Shown here piece by piece: positions 51,959-63,052 of a stretch of 64,000 nt of DNA. Each line of letters starts with the position of its first letter. Position 1 is the first letter of the stretch. The stretch is from Chitinophagales bacterium (GTDB lineage Bacteria > Bacteroidota > Bacteroidia > Chitinophagales > JADIYW01), in the NCBI GenBank assembly GCA_017984135.1, contig JAGNZZ010000001.1, positions 119,801-183,800 of the forward strand. Reading direction: 5' to 3'. Position numbers and translations under genes: made by a program. The notes beneath the pieces are model-generated. The model searched no databases and was not told where the DNA came from. It saw only the letters and a list, made by a program, of their open reading frames with translations.

Positions 51959-52001
51959 ACGCGACTAAATGTTAAAGTTATTGATTTTTATCAACTTTTG
52001 T

Positions 52002-53522
52002 TTAAAGCTTCTTAAATAATCCGCCAAATTCCATCATTTTCATCAAATCAGATACTTTTATTTTTCCGGACATAAATGCTTCTTGAGGATTCAATTTTCC
52101 TGTTTCAACAGCCACGTAAGTGGCATCATCGGTTTCTACGGTGCAGTCAACTGCAATTTGTCCACTATTCCCATTATTAATGATTTCTAAAATACCATCA
52201 TTTATAGATACAAAATACGTTGCTGAATCAAATTTAAATTCCATATTTAAATTTTTTCCTTTTGCTTTCTCTGTTTTAAATCGGGAAGGCAAAGTTTGAA
52301 AAACAGCCTCTACAGAATCTAATGAAGTATGTTCTTCTTTATTGATTGAAGTAGCTCTATCGTAGTTGGTATCATCAATAATCATTTTAGCTAAAATTTC
52401 TCTCATAATTTCTGAGGTTCCACCACCAATTGTTCCGATTCGAGAATCTCTGAATGCTCGTGCAATTTTAAAATCTTCCATATAACCATAACCTCCAAAA
52501 ACTTGTAGAATTTGATAGGCACATTTATCTGCTAATTCGGATGCTAACAGTTTAGAAATAGAACTTTCTTTTACAGCATATTTTCCTTCGTTATGCATTC
52601 TGCAAGTTTGTAATACATAGAATTTTATTGCTTCCGTTTCAGCGGCTAATTGTGCTACTTTGTGTCGCAGTACTTGAAATTTATTAATTGGACGACCAAA
52701 TGCATGTCTTTGACTCATATATTCCAATCCATATTGTATCATGCCTTCGCAAGCGGAATATCCCATGATTGAACCTGCTAATCGTTCTAATTGCAAGCCG
52801 CCCATTAAATAATAAAATCCTTTTCCTTCTTCGCCTAATAAATTTTTTGTTGGCACTTTTACATTATCAAAATGCAATTCTGCCGTGTCAGATGCATGCC
52901 AACCTAATTTTTTTAATTTGGTTTTAGATATGCCTTCACTATTTAAATCTACCACCAACAAACTTACGCCTGCTGCGCCAGCACTTGTGTTGGTTTTACA
53001 AACCAAGATTACAAAATGCCCGTAAACGCCATTAGTGATAAATGTTTTAGAGCCATTAACAACGTAGTAATCACCTTCTTTTATTGCGCGAGTTTGTATG
53101 TTAGCCACATCGCTGCCTGCACCTGGTTCTGTGATGCCAATACTGCCAATTTTTTCGCCGGCAATGGCAGCTTTGAAAAATGTTTCTTTTAAGTATTCAC
53201 TTCCATGATGTAAGATGTATGGACTGCTCATGCATACTTGTACGGCTGCCGTGATGGCAAAACCGCCAGAAAAGACTTTAGACACTTCTTCTAACATGAC
53301 AACAGTATAGAAAAAGTCGAGATTGCTTCCGCCATATTGCTCTGGAAAGCTGAGTCCGAAGTAACCCATTTCGCCAAATTTTTTCCAAAATTCACGAGGA
53401 ATTTTTCCATCTAATTCCCATTGGTCGATGTGAGGAACGGCTTCTGCTTTTAAAAAATCTTGAATGGATTTTCTGAACATTTCATGTTCTTCTGTAAAAT
53501 AGTAGGATAGTGCTGTTGACAT
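52002..53522 (-). CDS. Acyl-CoA dehydrogenase fused to a C-terminal SCP2 sterol-carrier-like domain (paralog 1)
   Basis: ACAD core to ~aa 385 (GITEPGAGSD..., GGYGYMEDF...IGGGTSEIM). The last ~110 aa (LPSRFKTEKAKG...LNPQEAFMSGKIKVSDLMKMMEFGGLF) are SCP2-like. Confidence 0.85.
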   Translation of the reverse strand: MSTALSYYFTEEHEMFRKSIQDFLKAEAVPHIDQWELDGKIPREFWKKFGEMGYFGLSFPEQYGGSNLDFFYTVVMLEEVSKVFSGGFAITAAVQVCMSSPYILHHGSEYLKETFFKAAIAGEKIGSIGITEPGAGSDVANIQTRAIKEGDYYVVNGSKTFITNGVYGHFVILVCKTNTSAGAAGVSLLVVDLNSEGISKTKLKKLGWHASDTAELHFDNVKVPTKNLLGEEGKGFYYLMGGLQLERLAGSIMGYSACEGMIQYGLEYMSQRHAFGRPINKFQVLRHKVAQLAAETEAIKFYVLQTCRMHNEGKYAVKESSISKLLASELADKCAYQILQVFGGYGYMEDFKIARAFRDSRIGTIGGGTSEIMREILAKMIIDDTNYDRATSINKEEHTSLDSVEAVFQTLPSRFKTEKAKGKNLNMEFKFDSATYFVSINDGILEIINNGNSGQIAVDCTVETDDATYVAVETGKLNPQEAFMSGKIKVSDLMKMMEFGGLFKKL

Positions 53523-53540
53523 GATAATTAAATAATTTAG

Positions 53541-53555
53541 TAATTAAATAATGTA
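53541..53555. repeat. Left arm of a perfect 15-bp inverted repeat flanking four-helix-bundle gene 1
   Basis: taattaaataatgta is the exact reverse complement of 53942-53956 (tacattatttaatta). A partial tandem copy lies at 53524-53537. Confidence 0.7.
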
Positions 53556-53563
53556 ATAATTAA

Positions 53564-53938
53564 TTAGTTTATTTTAATATTTAACTTTGAAGTTGATATT
53601 ATTTTAGTGAGTATTTTTCTAATTTCTAATAGTTTATCAATTAAATTTTGAGTATCAGGATAGGTATCAACTGCATTGCATATTTCTAACCAATATTCAG
53701 TTTCTTCCAATTCCTTTAATGCAATTTTTATTTTATGAATAAAATCATTTTTACTTTCAGCATTTTGTGCTTCTCTTACATTTGCACCAATTGATGTTCC
53801 TGATTTTAATAATTGATTTGAAATAATAAATTTTCTATTTGATTCTAATAATTCACAATACATGACTTTTTGAATTGAAAAATCAAAAGTCAATTTTAAT
53901 ATTGGATTGCTATTTTTTTCCATAATAGATTTTTTCAT
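53564..53938 (-). CDS. Four-helix-bundle protein (23S rRNA intervening-sequence protein family)
   Basis: SIGANVREAQNAESKNDFIHKIKIALKELEETEYWLEI, the family's hallmark. Confidence 0.85.
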   Translation of the reverse strand: MKKSIMEKNSNPILKLTFDFSIQKVMYCELLESNRKFIISNQLLKSGTSIGANVREAQNAESKNDFIHKIKIALKELEETEYWLEICNAVDTYPDTQNLIDKLLEIRKILTKIISTSKLNIKIN

Positions 53939-53941
53939 TCC

Positions 53942-53956
53942 TACATTATTTAATTA
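53942..53956. repeat. Right arm of the perfect 15-bp inverted repeat; overlaps the stop codon of ACAD-SCP2 paralog 2
   Basis: tacattatttaatta. Its last 3 nt (53954-53956, tta) are the TAA stop of the 53954..55480 gene. Confidence 0.7.
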
Positions 53957-55480
53957 TTTTATTGTTTCATTATTAAATTTTCGGAACAAAGTACCTAACT
54001 GCATCATTTTTCCTAAATCACTTACTTGAACTTTGCCACTCATAAATGCTTCTTGCGGATTAAGATTTCCTGTTTCAATGGCAATGTACGTTGCTTGGTT
54101 AGTAGTTACTATCAAGTCCACAGTTGACGGTCGACGGTCGACAGTGGACAAAGCAACTTGCTTGTTTTTTATTTGAACCCAATGATTTTTTTCATCTTCA
54201 AATTCAAACAACACATTCAACACTACTCCATCTGCTTTTTCTGTTTTTAATCTCGAAGGTAAACTATTGATGATATCATCAATGCTTACATCTTTAGATT
54301 GTGGTCGGTCGACTGTGGGCTGATAGCTTTTATCATCAATAACCATTTTCGATATAATCTCCAACATAATTTCTGATGTTCCACCGCCGATAGTGCCTAA
54401 GCGTGAATCTCGGAAAAAACGTGCCGCTTTGTATTCTTCCATATAACCATAACCACCAAACATTTGCAAACATTGATAGCCTAATTTATCAGATAATTCT
54501 GTGGCTAAATATTTTGACATAGAAGCTTCTTTAACGCAATATTTTTTCTCGTTATGCATTTGGCAAATTAAATAGGTATAAGTTTTTATACTTTCTAATT
54601 CTGCACTGAGTTGTGCCATTCGATGTCGCAAAACTTGAAATTTATTGATGCTTTTTCCAAATGCTTTGCGTTCACTCATATATTGCAAGGTGTATTGTAT
54701 CATTAATTCAGATGCAGCAATTGCTCCTAAGGCTAAGGTCAATCTGTCTAATTCAAAACGCTGCATGATGTAGTAAAATCCTTTGTTTGCTTCACCTAAT
54801 AAATTGGATATTGGCACTTCCACCTTATCGAATGCAATTTCTGCCGTATCACTGGCTTTCCAACCTAATTTTTTCAAATTATTTCTCGAAACACCTTTTG
54901 CATTTCCATCTACCAAAATCATAGATATACCACTTGCGCCAGAGTTGGCAGTTTTGCAAGCTACAATCATATAATCGGCTAAATAGCCATTGGTAATAAA
55001 ACATTTGCTTCCGTTGATGATGTATTTATCACCTTGTTGGATTGCTGTAGTTTTTATTCCGGCAACATCGCTTCCTGCGTGTGGCTCAGTAATGGCTAAA
55101 CATCCAACTATTTCTCCGGCAATGGCTTTATGTAAATATTTTTCTTTTAATTCGTCAGATGCTTCGTGTTTTAAATGCGACATAGACAAATATGGATGTG
55201 CGGAAATGCTTGCTGCAAAACCACCGCTCCAACATTTGCCTACTTCTTCAATAAAAATAACATCGTACCAAAAATCTAAATTAGAACCGCCGTATTTTTC
55301 TTCTTGCGTAATCCCAAAAAATCCCATTTCACCAAAACGCTTAAAAATTTCTCTGGGCAAAAATCCATCTTCTTCCCATTGGTCAATATTGGGTATTACT
55401 TCTTTATCCAAAAAATCGCGAAACGTTTTTCTAAATAATTGATGTTCCTCTTTTAAATAATATTGTTCTAAAATGCTCAT
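53954..55480 (-). CDS. Acyl-CoA dehydrogenase fused to a C-terminal SCP2 sterol-carrier-like domain (paralog 2)
   Basis: Same architecture as 52002..53522 (GGYGYMEEY...IGGGTSEIM; LPSRLKTEKADG...LNPQEAFMSGKVQVSDLGKMMQLGTLF). Confidence 0.85.
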   Translation of the reverse strand: MSILEQYYLKEEHQLFRKTFRDFLDKEVIPNIDQWEEDGFLPREIFKRFGEMGFFGITQEEKYGGSNLDFWYDVIFIEEVGKCWSGGFAASISAHPYLSMSHLKHEASDELKEKYLHKAIAGEIVGCLAITEPHAGSDVAGIKTTAIQQGDKYIINGSKCFITNGYLADYMIVACKTANSGASGISMILVDGNAKGVSRNNLKKLGWKASDTAEIAFDKVEVPISNLLGEANKGFYYIMQRFELDRLTLALGAIAASELMIQYTLQYMSERKAFGKSINKFQVLRHRMAQLSAELESIKTYTYLICQMHNEKKYCVKEASMSKYLATELSDKLGYQCLQMFGGYGYMEEYKAARFFRDSRLGTIGGGTSEIMLEIISKMVIDDKSYQPTVDRPQSKDVSIDDIINSLPSRLKTEKADGVVLNVLFEFEDEKNHWVQIKNKQVALSTVDRRPSTVDLIVTTNQATYIAIETGNLNPQEAFMSGKVQVSDLGKMMQLGTLFRKFNNETIK

Positions 55481-55498
55481 ATTTTCTCGTGATTTATT

Positions 55499-55590
55499 TA
55501 CCGCAAAGAGCGCAAAGGCTACCGCAAAGTTCGAAGAGGTTTATTTTTATAACCGCAAAGTATTTTAAGTTTTTCGCAAAGTTTTAAAGG
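55499..55590. repeat. CGCAAAG-motif repeat block (five copies), left flank of the GxxExxY gene
   Basis: cgcaaag at 55502, 55511, 55523, 55554 and 55575. The sub-block aaccgcaaag-N10-tttttcgcaaag (55551-55582) is mirrored at 56052-56083. Confidence 0.7.
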
Positions 55591-55591
55591 T

Positions 55592-55969
55592 TTATAATCC
55601 GTTTACTATTCTTTTTATTCCATGTTTTAAAAGGGTTACATTGAAATTTATTAATAAGCCAAGTTTGTAATTTCCAAGTTTTAAGTAAGTAAGCGTTTGT
55701 GCTAAATGAATGTCATTTAACGCTTCCACACTTTTTATTTCAATTACTAATTTTTCTTCCACCAATAAATCAATTCTATAACCGCAATCAAGTTTAACTT
55801 CTTCAAATAGTAATGGTATTGCTTTTTCTTTGTCAACTTTTAATCCTTCCTTTTTCAACTTATAATATAAACATTCTTGGTATGCACTTTCTAAAAGCCC
55901 AGGTCCTAATGCATTATGAACATCAATTGCTATACCTATAACAAAATGTGATAATTCATTTTCTTTCAT
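55592..55969 (-). CDS. GxxExxY protein (PD-(D/E)XK nuclease-fold family)
   Basis: GLLESAY motif and a D...E.K block (RIDLLVEEKLVIEIK), 125 aa. Confidence 0.85.
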   Translation of the reverse strand: MKENELSHFVIGIAIDVHNALGPGLLESAYQECLYYKLKKEGLKVDKEKAIPLLFEEVKLDCGYRIDLLVEEKLVIEIKSVEALNDIHLAQTLTYLKLGNYKLGLLINFNVTLLKHGIKRIVNGL

Positions 55970-56040
55970 TTTCTTCTATTATTACTTTGCTATAATTCCA
56001 TATTTGCTTTTTGCTATATAGTTGATAAATCATTTCAACT

Positions 56041-56083
56041 TACTTTGTGTCCTTTGCGAAAAATCTTTGAGCTCTTTGCGGTT
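56041..56083. repeat. Inverted CGCAAAG-motif arm, right flank of the GxxExxY gene
   Basis: Reverse complement reads aaccgcaaagagctcaaagatttttcgcaaaggacacaaagta, an imperfect inverted copy of 55551-55590. Both aaccgcaaag and tttttcgcaaag are exact. Confidence 0.65.
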
Positions 56084-56088
56084 AATGA

Positions 56089-56952
56089 TTAATTAATTGT
56101 TTTGATATTCAGCATTTCTCTTGTCTCAGAAATACTTGCAATTTCTCTGTCTAACATACGTGCTAATGTTGCGCCGGCTTCTACACATTCGCCGTTTGAT
56201 TTTGCCATTTCGCCATTGGGTAAGTAGAAATTATCTTCTAATCCAACTCGAAAATTTCCACCCATCGTACAAGCAATAGCAGCCAATTGCCATTGCTTTC
56301 TACTGATAGCAATCACTTGCCAAAATTCATTTTCCGGTACTTGCTTTATTTGATGCATTAAATTTTCTACTGTTGCAGGAATACCACCAAGCACGCCCAT
56401 TACTAAGCTGTAACATGCATTATCAGGAATTAATCCCATTTCTCGAAGTGGCACAACATTATGAATATGTCCGGTGTCGAAACATTCCATTTCCGGACAA
56501 ATATTATTTTCATTCATTGTTTTTACAACTTTAATCATCGTGTCAAAGGAGTTTTCAAAAACGGCATTCCAATAAAATTGTTTTTGTTTTTTGGAAAAGA
56601 TAGCATAGTTCATGCTGCCCATATTAAACGCTGCCATATCGGGTTTTGTAATCGGCAAATGCTTGATTCTTTCTTCTACGGAAAGACCGATTGCGCCTGT
56701 AGAAAAATTGATAATCACATCTGAAGAATGTTTGCGTACCTCCGCTTTAATTTCTTCAAATACTTCTGTTCGCCAACTTGGAATACCATTGTCTTCGCGC
56801 GCGTGAATGTGTACAATACTTGCGCCGGCATCTACTGCGCGTTTGGCTTCTTCACCTAATTCTCTTGGTGTGTATGGTATGGCAGGACAATGTGAACGGT
56901 TGGTGGCTGCTCCTGTGAGCGCTGCACTTAGTATTAGTTTTTTGTTTGACAT
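56089..56952 (-). CDS. Beta-keto acid cleavage enzyme family protein (BKACE; 3-keto-5-aminohexanoate cleavage enzyme-like, DUF849)
   Basis: LTGAATNRSHCPAIPYTPRELGEEAKRAVDAGASIVHIHAR, typical BKACE N-terminus, ~287 aa TIM-barrel size. Confidence 0.8.
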   Translation of the reverse strand: MSNKKLILSAALTGAATNRSHCPAIPYTPRELGEEAKRAVDAGASIVHIHAREDNGIPSWRTEVFEEIKAEVRKHSSDVIINFSTGAIGLSVEERIKHLPITKPDMAAFNMGSMNYAIFSKKQKQFYWNAVFENSFDTMIKVVKTMNENNICPEMECFDTGHIHNVVPLREMGLIPDNACYSLVMGVLGGIPATVENLMHQIKQVPENEFWQVIAISRKQWQLAAIACTMGGNFRVGLEDNFYLPNGEMAKSNGECVEAGATLARMLDREIASISETREMLNIKTIN

Positions 56953-56979
56953 TTATTTGATTTTTTTTGTTTATTTATT

Positions 56980-57140
56980 AACCGCAAAGTTTGCTAAGTA
57001 ATATATTCGCAAAGATTGCAAAGTTTTTATTTCTATTTTTCCATTTTTATATTAACCACAAAATATGCTAAGTTATTTCAAAGTATTCAAGATTTTCTAC
57101 AAGAACTTTGCGTAATTCTGAAACTTCGAGATTTGCGGTT
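56980..57140. repeat. Gene-less CGCAAAG inverted-repeat element (MITE-like or empty cassette)
   Basis: aaccgcaaag...ttcgcaaag...ttgcaaag (56980-57025) faces the inverted ctttgcg...tttgcggtt (57098-57140). A degenerate third copy lies at 57054-57090. No ORF lies between them. Confidence 0.6.
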
Positions 57141-57146
57141 AGTATT

Positions 57147-57971
57147 TTAATTTCCAATCCAATTTGGTTTTCGTTTTTCTTTGAATGCAGTTAAGCCTTC
57201 AGCTGCATCTTTACTTTGTAAACATTGCATCAACATAGCATGCAAATATTTGTGTTTTTCATCGGCATTTTTTGTTTTCATTTCTTGAAATGCTTTCAAG
57301 CCCAATCGTATGGCAGTAGGTGATTGTTCTTTGATTGCTGCAATTAATTCTTGTACTCGATTTTCTAAATTATCTGCAGTTACTACTTCAGAAACCAATC
57401 CGATTTCTTTTGCTTCACTTGCTGTCAATGTTTTAGCTCGAATGCATAAGTCTAACAGTTGGCGTGCCGACATTAAAGGCTCTAATGTTGCCATTACTTG
57501 AAATGGAAAAATGCCGCGTTTTACTTCAGGCAATCCAAATTTGGCTTCTTCAACGGCGATGACGTGTGTGCAACCACCAATCATTAAAAATCCACCGGCA
57601 TAAACATCGGCATGTACTTGTGCAATGCAAGGTTTATGTAAGCCGTTGAATTCATCGCCGAGTTTGACCATATCTTTTGGCATAGGTATGGTAGATTGTT
57701 TTTCGGCAGTGTTTTCACCAGCAAAGGCTTTTAAATCTGCACCGGCACAAAAGGTTGGTCCGTTGGCTTTGAGAACCACGCACCATATAGCATTGTTGTA
57801 ATGTGCATAAGCTAATGCGAATGCTAATTCATTTGCTAAAGGTGCGTGAAAAGCATTGCGTTTTTCCGGTCGATTGAGTGTGATGGTTAACACGTTTTCC
57901 TTTTCTTCGACAAGTAGGTAAGTAAAACTTTGTTCGTTGAAATTATGGATGTCTTGTTGTGAGTAGAGCAT
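57147..57971 (-). CDS. Enoyl-CoA hydratase/isomerase (crotonase) family; by context probably methylglutaconyl-CoA hydratase
   Basis: Crotonase fold motifs (FCAGADLK, GGGFLMIGGC-like, LPEVKRGIFP). Located between the MCC subunit genes and BKACE. Confidence 0.8.
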   Translation of the reverse strand: MLYSQQDIHNFNEQSFTYLLVEEKENVLTITLNRPEKRNAFHAPLANELAFALAYAHYNNAIWCVVLKANGPTFCAGADLKAFAGENTAEKQSTIPMPKDMVKLGDEFNGLHKPCIAQVHADVYAGGFLMIGGCTHVIAVEEAKFGLPEVKRGIFPFQVMATLEPLMSARQLLDLCIRAKTLTASEAKEIGLVSEVVTADNLENRVQELIAAIKEQSPTAIRLGLKAFQEMKTKNADEKHKYLHAMLMQCLQSKDAAEGLTAFKEKRKPNWIGN

Positions 57972-57976
57972 ATTTA

Positions 57977-58006
57977 TTTATGATTTATGAATTCAGATTT
58001 GAGATT
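57977..58006. repeat. 30-nt AT-rich element tttatgatttatgaattcagatttgagatt
   Basis: 28 of 30 positions match the reverse complement of 61253-61282 by manual alignment. Contains the palindrome TGAATTCA. Lies 6-35 nt upstream of the hydratase start. Confidence 0.6.
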
Positions 58007-58030
58007 AATTTATTCTAACTTTACTTTTCA

Positions 58031-58285
58031 TTTTTTTATGAGATTCCCTTTTACAAGGGAATGACATTTATATCTTAATGTAACCACGTCATTCTCACGA
58101 AAGTGGGAATCTTATTTTATTCCATTTTTATTTTCATTTTATATTTTTTTGAGATTCCCTTTTACAAGGGAATGACATTTATATCTTAATGTAACCACGT
58201 CATTCTCACGAAAGTGGGAATCTTATTTTATTCCATTTTTTCTTTTCATTTTTTTATGAGATTCCCTTTTACAAGGGAATGACAT
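58031..58285. repeat. 2.3 tandem copies of a 107-111 bp structured repeat, downstream flank of the GIY-YIG gene in gene orientation
   Basis: Anchor 'gattccc' at 58042, 58153 and 58260. Each unit has hairpin 1 (attccctt-ttac-aagggaat) and hairpin 2 (attc[t/c]cac-gaaa-gtgggaat). The third copy is cut after hairpin 1 by the gene's stop codon. Confidence 0.85.
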
Positions 58286-58636
58286 TTAATATCCAAAATA
58301 TTTTTTAGATTCATTATAATCTATTATATCCAATTCTGAATACCAATCAATCGCTAAATCTACTCTTTCTTTATTTATAGTATCAATTAATTCATCTTTC
58401 CATTTTCTATTCCATTTCTTTAATTGTTTTTCTCTTTCTATTGCGTTTGCCATATTATTAAACTCCTCGAAATAAATCAACTTTTTTATTTTGTATTTCT
58501 TTGTGAATACTGAACCATCGCCTTGTTTGTGCTGTAAAATTCTATACCATAAATAAGATGTGACACCAATATAAATTACATTACCAAAATTATTGGAGAT
58601 AATGTAAATACATGGATGTTTATTGTCTATTCTCAT
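58286..58636 (-). CDS. GIY-YIG nuclease-domain protein (small URI-domain type, COG2827/UPF0213-like)
   Basis: IYIISNNFGNVIYIGVTSYLWYRILQHKQG...FTKKY...LIYFEEF...AIEREKQLKKWNRKWK. Confidence 0.9.
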   Translation of the reverse strand: MRIDNKHPCIYIISNNFGNVIYIGVTSYLWYRILQHKQGDGSVFTKKYKIKKLIYFEEFNNMANAIEREKQLKKWNRKWKDELIDTINKERVDLAIDWYSELDIIDYNESKKYFGY

Positions 58637-58644
58637 GTTTAATT

Positions 58645-58845
58645 GTTTTTATAAGATTCCCTTTTACAAGGGAATGACATTTGTGTATTAATGTAACCAT
58701 GTCATTCCCACGAAAGTGGGAATCTTACTTTATTCCATTTTTTCTTTTCATTTTTTTATGAGATTCCCTTTTACAAGGGAATGACATTTGTATCTTAATG
58801 TAACCACGTCATTCCCACGAAAGTGGAAATCTTACATTATTTCAA
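58645..58845. repeat. Two further tandem copies of the same 107-bp structured repeat, upstream flank of the GIY-YIG gene
   Basis: Anchor 'gattccc' at 58655 and 58762, in the same orientation as the left block. The last copy runs up to the mccA stop codon (58846). Confidence 0.85.
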
Positions 58846-60861
58846 TCATTCTTTCATTTTTATCAATAACGTTCCGTTTTCTACAAATTGTTTTTCATTA
58901 ACATATATTTCTTCTACTTCGCCGTCGCTGTGGGCTTCAATGGTGCTTTCCATTTTCATAGAAATCATTTTTAATAAAGCATCGCCACTTTTTATTTTGT
59001 CGCCGGCTTTTACTAATACTGCCGTTATTTCGCCTGGCATGGGTGCAATGTATGCACCTTTTACTGTTTCTTCAATTGGACTTGGAAATTTATCTACACT
59101 AAACAAAACAATTTGCCCAAGTTGTGGTGAATGTATGAAATATTGATTACCGTTTTTAGAGAAGAAAAATTTTCGACGAATATTATTTATTTCAAAAGTG
59201 TGCCAATTGTTTCGGGATTTCTCTCTCGCCTTAAGCGAGATCGAATGAAGGTGCTCGTTATAGGTATGGTGTTTTGAAGCGAAATGTTTATCTGCAAATG
59301 AAATATGTAAATATCCGTTTTCGTTTTTGTATTCTACCAAAAATTCAAAGCCGTTAAAGCTGTATTTTTCTTGTTGCGCTTGATAGAAATTATTGCGCCA
59401 ACCTGCAGGAACGCCTTTTGCTAAGGATCTTTCATTTTCTCTTTGTAAAAAACGATAATGTTGCAAGGCACAAGTCAAAATATCCAAGGTTTCTTGCGGA
59501 TAATTTTCACCGGTATATTGGAATTTGTTATCCAAGAAATGCGTATCAAAATTTCCATTTTGGAAATCTTCGTTTTGTAATATAGATACTAAGAAATTTT
59601 TGTTTGTTGTAAAACCAGTTAAAACAGTTTCTTGCAATGCTAAAGTCAATTTAGCGATGGTTTCGTTTCTGTTTTTTCCTTTAGCAATTATTTTTGCAAT
59701 CATTGGGTCGTAGAAAGTTGAAATTTCTGAACCGCTTTCAATTCCGGTGTCATAACGCAAACCATCAATAGTTGCAGGTTGCCAATTCAAAATTTTTCCA
59801 CTTACTGGCATAAAATTGTTGGCTGCATCTTCGGCATATAAACGCACTTCAATAGCGTGTCCGTTTTGGGTAATTTCATTTTGTGTAAAAGGAATTGCAC
59901 TTCCTTGTGCTACTTCTATTTGCAATCGAACTAAATCTAAATGGGTAACTTCTTCTGTAACTGGATGTTCGACTTGCAAACGCGTGTTGACTTCCAAAAA
60001 ATAATAAGATTGGTCGTGAGTAACAATAAACTCTACTGTTCCAGCATTATCGTATTGAATAGCTTTACATGCAGCAACAGCCGCATCACCCATTTTTTTT
60101 CGTGTTTCTTCTGTGATAAAAGGAGATGGGCTTTCTTCTATTATCTTTTGATAACGCCGTTGAATACTACATTCACGTTCAAAAATATGCAATGCATTTC
60201 CATGTTTATCTCCAAAAATTTGAAACTCTATATGTCGAGCAGAATCGAAATATTTTTCTATTAAAAGTGTATCATCGCCGAAACCATTTAATGCTTCTGA
60301 TTTTGCTTCGGCAATGGCTTTGTCTAACTCTTTTTCTTCACACACAATGCGCATACCTTTACCGCCACCGCCAGCACTTGCTTTCAATAAAACAGGAAAT
60401 CCAATTTCAATTGACTTTGTTTTAATGGTTTCAATACTTTGGTCATCGCCTTGATAGCCAGGAATGGTTGGAACATGGTGTGCTTGCATAATTTTTTTTG
60501 CACCAATTTTAGAGCCCATCACTTCAATAGCTTTTGGATGAGGTCCAACCCAAATCATGTTTTCAGCTATCACTCGTTGAGCAAATTCAACACGCTCGCT
60601 CAAAAAACCATAACCTGGATGAATAGCATTTGCACCGGTTTTTTTTGCTGCATCCATAATTTTATCGATTATTAAATACGATTCATTCGGTTGCTTTCCT
60701 CCGATACGAACAGCTTCATCAGCGAGTTTAACAAACAATGCATTTTCATCCGCATCAGAAAAAACAGCAACAGTGGCAATGCCCATTTCTCTGCACGTTT
60801 TAAAAATCCTGCAAGCAATTTCCCCACGATTGGCAACTAATAATTTTTTTATTTTAGACAT
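58846..60861 (-). CDS. mccA: Biotin-dependent acyl-CoA carboxylase alpha subunit (biotin carboxylase plus BCCP), methylcrotonyl-CoA carboxylase type by context
   Basis: KKLLVANRGEIACRI start, ATP-grasp motifs, and a C-terminal biotinyl domain (SMKME). Confidence 0.85.
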   Translation of the reverse strand: MSKIKKLLVANRGEIACRIFKTCREMGIATVAVFSDADENALFVKLADEAVRIGGKQPNESYLIIDKIMDAAKKTGANAIHPGYGFLSERVEFAQRVIAENMIWVGPHPKAIEVMGSKIGAKKIMQAHHVPTIPGYQGDDQSIETIKTKSIEIGFPVLLKASAGGGGKGMRIVCEEKELDKAIAEAKSEALNGFGDDTLLIEKYFDSARHIEFQIFGDKHGNALHIFERECSIQRRYQKIIEESPSPFITEETRKKMGDAAVAACKAIQYDNAGTVEFIVTHDQSYYFLEVNTRLQVEHPVTEEVTHLDLVRLQIEVAQGSAIPFTQNEITQNGHAIEVRLYAEDAANNFMPVSGKILNWQPATIDGLRYDTGIESGSEISTFYDPMIAKIIAKGKNRNETIAKLTLALQETVLTGFTTNKNFLVSILQNEDFQNGNFDTHFLDNKFQYTGENYPQETLDILTCALQHYRFLQRENERSLAKGVPAGWRNNFYQAQQEKYSFNGFEFLVEYKNENGYLHISFADKHFASKHHTYNEHLHSISLKAREKSRNNWHTFEINNIRRKFFFSKNGNQYFIHSPQLGQIVLFSVDKFPSPIEETVKGAYIAPMPGEITAVLVKAGDKIKSGDALLKMISMKMESTIEAHSDGEVEEIYVNEKQFVENGTLLIKMKE

Positions 60862-61246
60862 ATTTTGATTTCAGATTTATGATTTCAGATTTATGATTTT
60901 TTTTAGCTTTTAGTGTTTTTAGAATAGCTGAAAATATAGCAGTTAATTCATTTGATTCTTTGATTAATTCTTCTAATCCATTTAATTTTGAATTTGTTTC
61001 TTCAAATAGTTCAACCCAATAAATACATTCATCTGCTTCTTCTTGAACAATATTTATTTTATTGATAAAATCTGGGTTTGATTTACCTCTTAATGCAGAA
61101 CGATAATTTGCACCAACGGATGTTGATGCTCTAACGATTTGTTTAATTATGATTACATTAGCATAAGTCGGTTTTATGTTTTCAGTAAATTTTATAGTAT
61201 TTACAGCAAATTTTTTTGTTCTATTTCGTAGTTCAATTGAGTTCAT
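60854..61246 (-). CDS. Four-helix-bundle protein (23S rRNA intervening-sequence protein family), copy 2
   Basis: SVGANYRSALRGKSNPDFINKINIVQEEADECIYWVEL. The 3' end overlaps the mccA start by 8 nt (TATGTCTAA). Confidence 0.85.
   Translation of the reverse strand: MNSIELRNRTKKFAVNTIKFTENIKPTYANVIIIKQIVRASTSVGANYRSALRGKSNPDFINKINIVQEEADECIYWVELFEETNSKLNGLEELIKESNELTAIFSAILKTLKAKKNHKSEIINLKSKYV
60866..60903. repeat. Perfect 14-nt tandem duplication (gatttcagatttat x2, plus a partial third) with a T-run
   Basis: Units at 60867-60880 and 60881-60894. They encode the last ~13 aa of four-helix-bundle copy 2. Related to 50395-50414, 10485-10510 and 57977-58006. Confidence 0.75.
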
Positions 61247-61252
61247 ATTATA

Positions 61253-61282
61253 AATCTTAAATCTGAATTCTTAAATCATAAA
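61253..61282. repeat. Inverted copy of the 30-nt AT-rich element
   Basis: Reverse complement tttatgatttaagaattcagatttaagatt versus 57977-58006. Lies between the mccB stop (61288) and the four-helix-bundle start (61246). Confidence 0.6.
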
Positions 61283-61287
61283 TTCAA

Positions 61288-62892
61288 TTACATTCTAAAC
61301 ACACCCCAAGCATTTGTTCCTTTTACTTCATTTATATAGGTTAATGCTAATATTAACCCAAATACATGTCGTGTATCTCTTGGGTCGATGATGCCATCAT
61401 CCCAAAGTTGACCTGTAGCAAAGAATGCATTACTTTGTTTTTCTATTTCCATTTTCATAAATTCTTTCATTTGTGTTGCTTGTGTTTCGTCGTATTGTTG
61501 ACCAGATTTAATAGCGGCTTCTTTGCTGACCATTTGCATGACACCAGCTAATTGTTCTGCACCCATAACCGCAATCATAGAGTTTGGATAGGAAAATAAA
61601 AAACGTGGATTATAAGCTCGACCGCACATCGCATAATTTCCTGCGCCATACGATGCGCCCATCATTAAAGTAAACATAGGTACTTCGGAATTAGAAACCG
61701 CATTAATCATCTTGGCACCATCTTTAATAATGCCACTTTGTTCGTAATCTTTTCCCACCATAAATCCTGTAATGTTTTGTAAAAATAGGATAGGTGTGTG
61801 GTTCATATTGCACAACTGAATAAAGTGTGCACCTTTGTTAGACGAATCATTAAATAAAACGCCATTATTTCCGATGATTGCAATAGGATAACCGTGAATT
61901 TTTGCATAACCGCAAACTAACGTAGTGCCATATTCTTTTTTAAACTCGTGAAACTCTGAACCATCTACTATGCGAGCAATTACTTCTCGGCAATCAAAAG
62001 GAACTTTAGTGTCCACAGAAACAATTCCGAGTAACTCGTCGATAGGATAATGAGGTTCTTTATAATTTTGAGATTTGAGATTTTGGATATGAGATTTTAA
62101 ATTTAGATTAGCCATTAATTCTCTTGCAATTCTGATTCCATCTAATTCATCTTGCGCTAAATAATCGGAAACGCCTGAAATTTTTGAATGCATTTCTGCT
62201 CCACCTAAAGTTTCATCATCTACAATTTCATTCGTAGCCATTTTTACTAATGGTGGTCCGGCTAAGAAAACTTTAGCATTGTTTTTAATGAAAATAGTAT
62301 AATCGCTCATACCTGGAATATATGCACCGCCGGCAGTTGAATTTCCAAAAACGATAGAGATCGTTGGCACACCTTGTTTAGAACGACGTGTAATTTCTTT
62401 GAAATTATTTCCACCTAAATTAAACACTTGTGCTTGGTCGGGCAAGTTGGCACCTGCACTTTCCACTAAACTGATTCCTGGTAAATTATTTTCTCGTCCA
62501 ATTTCTGAAATACGTAATGCTTTTTTCAAAGAAGCAATATCAATAGCACCACCTTTATTAGTGCCAACATTTGAAGTGATTAAACACATTTTTCCAGATA
62601 CAAAACCTATACCAGCAACCATAGTGCCACCTGTTCCAAAGCCACCTTTTACACCTAATCCTGCTAAAGGACATAATTCTAAAAATGGAGAATCTTGGTC
62701 GAGTAATAATTCTATTCGTTCACGGGCTAAGAACTTGCCTTGTGATTTCGCTTTAGTAGTATGTTTTTCATCTCCTTGAAATATGGATTGTTTGAGATGT
62801 TTTTCTAACTCAGCAATTTTATCAAGCATCTTAGAATAATTCTCTTTATATGATGCAGCGGTTGTATTTATTTTTGTTTTTATAGTGGACAT
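61288..62892 (-). CDS. mccB: Acyl-CoA carboxylase carboxyltransferase (beta) subunit, methylcrotonyl-CoA carboxylase type
   Basis: N-terminal region (GKFLARERIELLLDQDSPFLELCPLAG) resembles the MCC beta subunit more than PCC beta. Tandem crotonase-like CT domains, 534 aa. Confidence 0.85.
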   Translation of the reverse strand: MSTIKTKINTTAASYKENYSKMLDKIAELEKHLKQSIFQGDEKHTTKAKSQGKFLARERIELLLDQDSPFLELCPLAGLGVKGGFGTGGTMVAGIGFVSGKMCLITSNVGTNKGGAIDIASLKKALRISEIGRENNLPGISLVESAGANLPDQAQVFNLGGNNFKEITRRSKQGVPTISIVFGNSTAGGAYIPGMSDYTIFIKNNAKVFLAGPPLVKMATNEIVDDETLGGAEMHSKISGVSDYLAQDELDGIRIARELMANLNLKSHIQNLKSQNYKEPHYPIDELLGIVSVDTKVPFDCREVIARIVDGSEFHEFKKEYGTTLVCGYAKIHGYPIAIIGNNGVLFNDSSNKGAHFIQLCNMNHTPILFLQNITGFMVGKDYEQSGIIKDGAKMINAVSNSEVPMFTLMMGASYGAGNYAMCGRAYNPRFLFSYPNSMIAVMGAEQLAGVMQMVSKEAAIKSGQQYDETQATQMKEFMKMEIEKQSNAFFATGQLWDDGIIDPRDTRHVFGLILALTYINEVKGTNAWGVFRM

Positions 62893-62966
62893 AATTTTCT
62901 TTTTTTAAAACAACAGGATGTTTAAAAAACATTAACAAGTATAAGCATTTTCTATTAATTTGACTA

Positions 62967-62979
62967 AACGTTTGGTAAA
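62967..62979. promoter_or_regulatory. Candidate operator, copy 1 of AACGTTTGGTAAA
   Basis: Exact 13-mer repeated at 63053-63065. Contains the palindrome AAACGTTT. Lies where a -33 element for the minus-strand operon would be expected, relative to an imperfect -7 box TATACTTG at 62936-62943. Confidence 0.35.
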
Positions 62980-63052
62980 AAATTATTTGTAAAATTTGTG
63001 TTAATTCATATCAAGCACTTGATATTCAACATTAAAAGCGGTAAAACAAACG

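Follow-up and report, generated by a model that had tools for sequence, protein, structure and literature searches.

The minus strand of the 64-kb Chitinophagales window (the whole stretch of DNA analysed here) carries a catabolic operon, in which a 194-nucleotide (nt) spacer separates an enoyl-CoA hydratase gene from a gene of the BKACE family. The spacer contains inverted arms composed of the heptamer CGCAAAG and its variants, and arms of the same kind enclose a gene for a small GxxExxY (PDDEXK_3) protein located about 1 kb downstream. We suggest, with moderate confidence, that a decayed, gene-less and non-autonomous copy from an inverted-repeat family sits in the spacer, the full form of that family carrying the GxxExxY gene; the copy would be an element similar to REPINs and to MITEs (miniature inverted-repeat transposable elements). 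The positions of all relevant features are collected in Table 1.

All four heptamers are present in the outer right arm of the spacer, at offsets 0, 9, 25 and 34, and the arm end lies 27 nt ahead of the BKACE start codon; the left arm begins 6 nt past the hydratase stop codon. The right terminus (56980-56989) matches the consensus exactly and the left one (57131-57140, AACCGCAAAT) has one mismatch. Over their last 13 nt, the two outer arms show 92% complementarity. An inner, degenerate copy of the right arm (R' in Table 1) is also present, with the string aaccacaaaatatgctaagttatttcaaag located at 57054-57083. On the operon strand, the order within the spacer is AACCGCAAAT...CGCAAAG, the degenerate CTTTGAAATAACTTAGCATATTTTGTGGTT and CTTTGCaatCTTTGCG...CTTTGCGGTT. 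The inner pair of arms (57054-57140) spans 87 nt and the outer pair (56980-57140) spans 161 nt, which is the upper edge of the gene-less class described below. Two direct repeats, each consisting of a right-arm terminus and 28 nt outside it, indicate duplication or conversion of an arm together with its flank. The strings quoted in the first-pass annotation of this spacer were all found in the window sequence and its positions were roughly right, with three ends corrected: 57023 instead of 57025 for the outer right arm, 57106 instead of 57098 for the left arm and 57083 instead of 57090 for the degenerate string.

In line with the same annotation, which had reported no gene between the arms, no open reading frame (ORF) of at least 50 amino acids (aa) lies wholly within 56953-57146. 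A 64-aa plus-strand ORF (56807-57001) overlaps the spacer edge and covers chiefly the BKACE gene. Rfam covariance models, applied to 52000-63000 with E values up to 5, matched neither 56953-57146 nor the flanks of the GxxExxY gene, and the sole matches in the scanned region were spurious, miRNA-like and placed at the hairpins beside a GIY-YIG gene. The consensus of Bacteroidota promoter boxes is TTTG / TAnnTTTG, and TAnnTTTG, the -7 box, has zero occurrences in 53785-58584. On the minus strand of the spacer, the promoter scan found no sigma-70 hexamer pair, and the terminator scan no terminator-like site (a GC-rich hairpin with a T run). As there is no ORF inside, no -7 box, no minus-strand terminator and no Rfam match, the spacer is presumably read through within the operon transcript.

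Table 1. Genes and repeat features of the operon region (window positions).
Feature	Position	Strand	Remarks
Intercistronic spacer, 194 nt	56953-57146	- (operon strand)	gap between hydratase and BKACE genes
ECH_1 enoyl-CoA hydratase-family gene, upstream neighbour	57147-57971	-	ORF and family match
BKACE-family gene, downstream neighbour	56089-56952	-	ORF and family match
Outer right arm, aaccgcaaagtttgctaagtaatatattcgcaaagattgcaaag	56980-57023	+	AAC-CGCAAAG-tt-TGCTAAG-n9-CGCAAAG-at-TGCAAAG, all four heptamers
Left (upstream) arm, reverse complement aaccgcaaatctcgaagtttcagaattacgcaaag	57106-57140	-	AACCGCAAAT-ctcgaag-...-CGCAAAG
Inner degenerate right-arm copy R'	57054-57090	+	AACCACAAAA-ta-TGCTAAG-...-TTCAAAG
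Two 51-nt direct repeats, 76% identical	56952-57002 and 57026-57076	+	each a right-arm terminus + 28 nt outside
GxxExxY / PDDEXK_3 gene, 125 aa	55592-55969	-	operon gap; candidate trans-acting protein
Left arm of GxxExxY cassette	56040-56083	-	AACCGCAAAG-ag-CTCAAAG-n7-CGCAAAG-ga-CACAAAG
Right-arm array of GxxExxY cassette	55499-55581	+	five CGCAAAG and three termini
Carboxyltransferase gene	61288-62892	-	operon gene
Biotin carboxylase subunit gene	58846-60861	-	operon gene
Acyl-CoA dehydrogenase genes (two)	53954-55480 and 52002-53522	-	operon genes
Four-helix-bundle genes (PF05635, '23S rRNA-intervening sequence protein')	60854-61246 and 53564-53938		operon gaps
GIY-YIG gene	58286-58636	-	operon gap

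The first-pass annotation had ascribed to the spacer the same arm architecture as that found around the GxxExxY gene, and the heptamer arms of the two loci do match. In the GxxExxY cassette the right-side termini ([T/A]ACCGCAAAG) are located at 55499, 55520 and 55551, and the downstream CTTTGCG array ends in CTTTGCGGTT/A. Of these three termini, the outermost is the best partner for the left arm (22 nt, 91% complementary), which means that arm duplication has occurred on the right side of this cassette too. The 64-kb window contains 13 copies of CGCAAAG versus 5.1 expected, a count reached by 0 of 100 shuffles, and 10 of the 13 fall in 55502-57112. Clusters of at least three heptamers within 45 nt occur three times in the 64 kb, versus 0.09 by first-order Markov simulation; one is the outer arm in the hydratase-BKACE spacer, and the other two are the arms around the GxxExxY gene.

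A set of 80 GxxExxY loci (72-90% protein identity, one genome per species searched) was used for comparison. These loci span Chitinophagales, Saprospirales, Flavobacteriales, Bacteroidales, Cytophagales, Sphingobacteriales, Ignavibacteria and a Marinimicrobia genome. The upstream arm follows the plan TTAAC-C[G/A]CAAAG, 2 nt, heptamer 2, 4-6 nt, heptamer 3, 2 nt, heptamer 4, and the downstream arm is its mirror image, terminating in CTTTG[C/T]GGTTAA. Each arm bears three to four C[G/A]CAAAG heptamers at offsets 0, 9, ~21 and ~30 from the TTAACC terminus (of 111 arms, 79 have a heptamer start at offset 9, 84 have one at 20-23 and 56 have one at 29-33). Both arms, defined as at least two forward heptamers upstream and at least two inverted ones downstream, were found at 57 of 77 genes versus 0 of 1007 control segments from the same loci.

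The distances between paired termini in the 80 loci form a bimodal histogram, with one class lacking and the other containing a gene. The 31 short pairs measure 42-160 nt (mode 80-100) and have no gene inside, the 34 long pairs measure 431 to ~650 nt and enclose the GxxExxY gene in 33 cases, and no pair falls between 160 and 430 nt. The gene-less copies frequently adjoin the gene, some of them as complete doublets on both sides and some as tandem arrays (L042, L067).

A similar picture was obtained from a metagenome sample of unselected contigs, taken by the left-arm pattern. There, 26 of 38 pairs measured 60-120 nt, and no GxxExxY ORF was present in the 22 loci with gene-less pairs. The 137 arm matches of the sample included two gene-carrying pairs as well as 65 solo arms without a partner, beside which no recurrent gene was found. 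Scans of viral contigs by the termini alone (18 fixed bases) gave mostly chance-level matches, and multi-heptamer matches alone were kept; nine of the ten true pairs measured 70-143 nt and one 247 nt, with no multi-heptamer pair at 320-501 nt. GC-richer genomes (L165-L284 from the metagenome, mean GC 50%, and the viral L101, L103, L106, L108, L112, L116, L119 and L122), which are probably non-Bacteroidota, bear three-heptamer arms with a strict 9-nt period, and many of these arms are solo, without a partner, nearby GxxExxY ORF or recurrent neighbour gene.

The elements occupy a regular position between cistrons. The left terminus lies a median of 9.5 nt past the upstream stop codon, at times overlapping it, and the right terminus a median of 17 nt ahead of the next ATG, values to which the 6 nt and 27 nt of the spacer copy conform. 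In 53 of 64 loci, both neighbours have the same orientation as the GxxExxY gene. Such regular placement may result from targeting or from purifying selection against disruptive insertions. In four Flavobacteriaceae loci (L020:4577-7298, L036, L037 and L043) the cassette resides at one shared junction, between genes for a 105-aa membrane protein and a 640-aa protein, which by eye resemble subunits K and L of NADH dehydrogenase. The shared junction suggests that the cassette has long been inherited vertically at one site.

The hydratase-BKACE junctions of relatives were found through BKACE orthologues and reading of their contigs. The gap measures 31-42 nt in L094, L096, L161 and L163 and 85-88 nt in L162 and L164; all six of these relatives are free of the element, and their gaps have no heptamers apart from a single stray CACGAAG in one of them. 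In a more distant relative (L098:2903-3500) the same gap is 598 nt long and contains an unrelated repeat family (cagtattgggtattgagtatttagacgaggggaat... units). At this junction the CGCAAAG element is restricted to two species, that of the window (haplotype L005 included) and its sister L014, the nearest relative, with BKACE 87.6% identical in nucleotide sequence to that of the window. As these two alone possess it and group together in a single clade of the BKACE tree, parsimony points to one gain at the junction in their common ancestor, the element having been inherited since. The first-pass annotation had proposed that the spacer is a MITE-like, gene-less relative of the GxxExxY cassette, and both the arm distances and the comparison of relatives agree with this.

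Other gaps of the operon differ between relatives as well. A CACAAAG-type GxxExxY cassette is found in L094, L161 and L162 where the window has a four-helix-bundle gene, a gene-less CGCAAAG element in L014 and L163 where the window has the GIY-YIG cassette, and a 53-nt mini-element after BKACE in L164. The metagenome-assembled genome GCA_035911035.1 contains two operon versions, L009 and L164 (JAMHWH010000074 and JAMHWH010000012; BKACE 86% nucleotide identity), which differ in cassette content and represent either a two-species bin or a duplicated operon. The element family is widespread in Bacteroidota and comes and goes between operon genes. A literature search without most subscription journals gave no paper on the arms or on their association with GxxExxY, so that an earlier description is possible, and PHROG and PADLOC gave no informative family; the element family is apparently undescribed.

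The sister species L014 carries at the junction a clean 85-nt element (TAACCGCAAAGtaCACAAAGgaaatCGCAAAG...CTTTGCGaaaaaacttaaaatcCTTTGCGGTA), predicted to form a long hairpin (z -8.3), and for other canonical gene-less copies the predicted folding z is about -7. The predicted folding of the window copy is weak (z -2.2 for the inner pair and -2.0 for the whole spacer) and falls short of a stable hairpin, which we read as decay of that copy. Its left arm retains heptamer 1, with one mismatch, and heptamer 3, which is displaced to offset 29 (not ~21), but heptamers 2 and 4 have been eroded; the four-heptamer plan is complete in the right arm only. In 12 contigs of the window species the spacer is almost unchanged, the variants being a duplication of 8 nt, the loss of 1 nt from the left terminus and, in L005, a different right arm. 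Haplotype L005 equals the L014 element with ~70 nt inserted in the loop, the insert holding the degenerate arm copy R', and the right arm and leader of L005 share 96% identity with their L014 counterparts. The outer arm and leader have, in the window haplotype, given way to a version that shares 76% identity with the inner copy. The window copy is thus a relic, rearranged through arm duplication or conversion, and in situ it probably rides along inertly in the operon transcript.

How the arms are conserved suggests how they may be recognised. When the left arm is compared with the reverse-complemented right arm, the heptamer positions agree at 46-100%, mostly at 70% or more, whereas the 2-nt spacers between heptamers agree at only 12-26% (chance 31%). 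The heptamer type (CGC or CAC) is equal in both arms in 42 of 43 elements, and a single genome contains both types, each accompanied by a separate copy of the gene. Clade-2 GxxExxY proteins (Flavobacterium, 33-35% identity) are flanked by CACGAAT/ATTCGTG arrays at two independent loci, L276:12700-13400 and L285:1395-1965 (Flavobacterium taihuense), with the termini TTTAAACACGAAT...ATTCGTGTTTAAA. In the sequences compared, the repeat motif therefore co-varies with the protein clade. Because the heptamers agree while the spacers differ, the arm types match and the motif switches with the clade, these observations point to sequence-specific recognition of the heptamers and not to mere hairpin formation.

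The GxxExxY protein matches PDDEXK_3 of Pfam (E 1.9e-41), and its Pfam and NCBIfam matches are PDDEXK_3 / TIGR04256 (GxxExxY) alone, with no match to a transposase family in either database. Residues E27, D67, E77 and K79, invariant in 51 sequences of two clades, appear to be the catalytic-type residues of a PD-(D/E)XK nuclease, namely the conserved acidic residues and lysine of its alpha-beta-beta-beta-alpha-beta core. The AlphaFold model reached a predicted local distance difference test score (pLDDT) of 93.7 with a two-clade alignment, while a one-clade alignment gave 46. The solved folds nearest to the model are Cas4, lambda exonuclease, Bax1, tRNA-splicing endonuclease and Hjc, all of the PD-(D/E)XK type, at a modest level of structural similarity (best E 2.6e-3, TM 0.54); no PDB chain was matched by sequence or profile. 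At residue 122 (window 55604-55606), V is found in 84% of the proteins whose arms are of the CGCAAAG type, and I in 92% of those whose arms are of the CACAAAG type. This residue may have to do with specificity or reflect lineage; as the change is conservative and may mark only lineage, we did not adopt it as a specificity determinant. The PDDEXK_3/GxxExxY family is very large, with more than 8000 relatives among the matches listed. A 2012 survey of the PD-(D/E)XK superfamily (PMC3424549) described PDDEXK_3 as a family of unknown function with multiple transfers.

As the GxxExxY protein is the sole one constantly linked to the arms, and given its invariant residues and PD-(D/E)XK-like model, we infer that it is the acting protein. 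The heptamers would be its putative binding sites, and the nuclease encoded 1 kb downstream of the spacer would probably recognise gene-less copies in trans. Binding of the protein to its own heptamer arrays may be followed by cleavage and then repair, or by some other transfer step, and the nuclease could in this way spread or maintain both full and gene-less copies, by analogy with the action of RAYT on REPINs; an alternative image would be that of a homing nuclease converting empty sites. We tentatively propose a broader view, in which GxxExxY proteins might be the dedicated nucleases of a previously unrecognised class of selfish elements, analogous to REPIN-RAYT and built on a different nuclease fold. 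In each clade its own heptamer arrays (C[G/A]CAAAG, CACGAAT and others) would serve to propagate or maintain the cassette and a much larger population of gene-less palindromes between cistrons, in Bacteroidota and other phyla.

Several points weigh against these proposals. We know of no strand-transfer activity of a 125-aa nuclease, and the label 'transposase' is not established for this protein. The mobility implied in the first-pass annotation is supported by the pattern of presence and absence at junctions, but transposition itself is only inferred and no target-site duplication was seen. The filled sites (window, L014) and the empty ones (L094, L096, L161, L163) are not alignable base for base, their flanks being AT-rich and too diverged, and neither a target-site duplication nor an excision footprint was identified; the bases outside AACC/GGTT prolong the inverted repeat (TT..AA or TG..CA) and form no direct repeat. 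The polarity of the insertion rests on a neighbour-joining tree of one gene. As the junction copy has been inherited vertically over ~12% BKACE nucleotide divergence, movement must be rare, and there are two element loci in the 64-kb window. The 80 comparison loci were picked by protein similarity and the majority come from metagenome-assembled genomes. Finally, the non-nuclease cassettes of the operon (four-helix-bundle, PF05635) are analogous, with arrays in inverted arms, and the shared cassette logic may be independent of a cassette-encoded nuclease.

The last point also keeps alive an explanation at the RNA level, which we regard as unlikely, although it is the rival to be taken most seriously. 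According to it, the cassette is an 'intervening sequence' whose arms pair in the polycistronic transcript, where a double-strand-specific cut of the RNase III type is made, as in 23S rRNA intervening sequences, or the hairpin stabilises or insulates the neighbouring cistrons; gene-less copies would be hairpins that serve such processing or stability, the spread would occur via recombination or an unrelated enzyme, and GxxExxY would be cargo, not the engine. The hairpins predicted for canonical gene-less copies are indeed very stable (z -7 to -8.3), the flanks of the window GxxExxY cassette show long-range pairing in the predicted fold (z -3.3) in addition to the complementarity of its 22-nt arms, and the cassettes are co-oriented with operons and placed exactly between stop and start codons. 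Moreover, genes of the '23S rRNA-intervening sequence protein' family occupy equivalent cassettes of the same operon. On the other hand, the heptamers are conserved over hosts from 31% to more than 50% GC while the nucleotides between them are non-complementary, and a purely structural role predicts the opposite pattern. The switch of motif with protein clade, the 65 solo arms and the persistence of the window copy despite loss of most of its predicted stability do not favour a role in RNA pairing either. A role in RNA and recognition by the nuclease are not mutually exclusive.

The first-pass annotation had offered, as another possibility, that the spacer is the scar of a lost cargo gene. A GxxExxY gene would then once have lain between the arms at the hydratase-BKACE junction and have been deleted, with the arms left behind. 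In-place decay of GxxExxY cassettes is indeed seen: in the position of the live gene of the window, L094 has a pseudogene with intact CGCAAAG arms (L094:4365-4860, with an in-frame TAA, YQECL*YKL), and in L162 (5926-6466) the ORF of a GxxExxY copy is broken by an internal duplication. The window spacer, with 161 nt between its outer termini, is also longer and messier than canonical gene-less copies. The extra length, however, corresponds to the ~70-nt insertion with an arm copy and not to gene remnants. We consider a scar quite improbable, since the sister copy is a compact 85-nt element and no relative has a gene at this junction; in addition, random deletion would not yield the tight size class of gene-less copies, with nothing at 160-430 nt. 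As tblastn with the GxxExxY protein finds no fragment in the spacer and the sister copy is compact, the window copy does not appear to be the remains of a deleted gene.

Even less probable, in our opinion, is that the repeats are an operator, promoter or terminator of the catabolic operon. Their intercistronic position and the TTTG of Bacteroidota promoter boxes contained in the repeated motif would fit such a role. However, the element is missing at the junction in six relatives with the same operon, the scans of the region gave no TAnnTTTG and no minus-strand terminator-like site, and in many phyla-level lineages the GxxExxY genes of unrelated loci are framed by these same arms. Base-for-base conservation of the spacer across relatives, which the first-pass annotation would have taken as a sign of a regulatory region, was not observed, so this objection did not arise. 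Chance resemblance within AT-rich intergenic DNA (the window has 31% GC, and 10-mers with one mismatch number 8 versus 3.65 expected) can be dismissed in view of the three heptamer clusters where 0.09 are expected, the clean orthologous copy in L014 and the family-wide architecture.

The decayed, gene-less member that we place in the spacer lies in an operon with several other cassettes. The longest inverted repeats of the whole 64 kb are those bracketing the four small genes of the operon gaps, each small-gene family is framed by its own repeat type, and the hydratase-BKACE spacer is the sole gene-less gap in the stretch described. The GIY-YIG gene is bounded by tandem units of ~110 nt (57990-58285 and 58640-58840) with two hairpins per unit, in which GTCATTCCCTTGTAAAAGGGAATC has five exact occurrences. 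A contig of the same species (L010, 816-999) lacks the GIY-YIG gene and retains ~1.3 units, which represents a presence/absence polymorphism of this cassette. Both PF05635 genes are enclosed by AT-rich inverted repeats of their own (53524-53973 and 60861-61290), and in L163 (4365-4534) the gap between the BKACE and acyl-CoA dehydrogenase genes contains a gene-less PF05635-type repeat array (gaaataat x14, then cattactt-type units). A small gene within array-type inverted arms, together with gene-less shells, is therefore common to at least two to three unrelated gene families.

The value of the decayed spacer copy is that it exposes a widespread element family tied to PDDEXK_3, a large protein family of unknown function. 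Clade-specific arrays and abundant gene-less palindromes give the GxxExxY/PDDEXK_3 family a testable role, and the protein together with its arrays is a candidate for a new short-site-specific system of nuclease-DNA recognition. The element family accounts for many unannotated intergenic repeats in Bacteroidota genomes. The catabolic operon itself shows that one operon can act as a landing strip, in which nearly every gap is filled, differently in each relative, with cassettes of three gene families or with empty shells; such filling of gaps bears on operon evolution as well as on errors of assembly and annotation.

Known systems share some of these features. Like homing endonuclease genes, the cassette has a small nuclease gene in a site that also exists 'empty', and GIY-YIG, a classical homing nuclease fold, is present in a neighbouring cassette. 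The 'empty' form is here a repeated palindrome and not a unique target in a host gene, and no intron or intein is involved. The 23S rRNA intervening sequences (PF05635) likewise have a small ORF within inverted repeats able to pair in the transcript, and PF05635 members occupy equivalent cassettes of the window operon; here, however, the cassettes lie between protein-coding cistrons, and the CGCAAAG arms hold another ORF family. The Correia (NEMIS) elements of Neisseria and the similar ERIC, RUP and BOX elements are palindromes of ~100-150 nt without their own transposase, which are co-transcribed with adjacent genes and can form long hairpins in mRNA. Our gene-less copies are palindromic intergenic repeats of a similar kind, but they have no sequence relationship to these elements, and heptamer arrays and a consistently linked protein gene are found only here.

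In a loose sense, the element fits the definition of a MITE. It is short (42-160 nt) and non-coding, it has terminal inverted repeats and ends common to a longer, gene-carrying form, and close relatives differ in its presence or absence. Unlike in MITEs, no target-site duplication was seen, the gene-carrying form has no recognised transposase, and many copies form tandem arrays or complete doublets flanking the gene.

The closest analogue is the REPIN-RAYT system. In both cases a small single gene has short repeats of its own on either side, inverted relative to each other, and gene-less inverted doublets (~100 nt, intergenic) far outnumber the gene (here two gene-carrying pairs per 137 arm matches). 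In both, the repeat sequence co-varies with the protein clade (here, CACGAAT arms with clade 2), and inheritance is mostly vertical with occasional gain or loss. The differences concern the protein, which here is GxxExxY of the PD-(D/E)XK fold, whereas RAYT is an HUH/Y1 (IS200/IS605-like) transposase, and the repeats, which here comprise three to four direct heptamers and an AACC terminus, whereas a REP is an imperfect palindrome of 20-40 nt that bears a GTAG/CGTC tag. Here, moreover, the host lineages are Bacteroidota and others outside the proteobacteria, and the placement is strictly intercistronic and co-oriented with operons. Since its protein class and repeat structure fail the defining tests of REPIN-RAYT, the element is not a member of that system, but an analogue that works alike.

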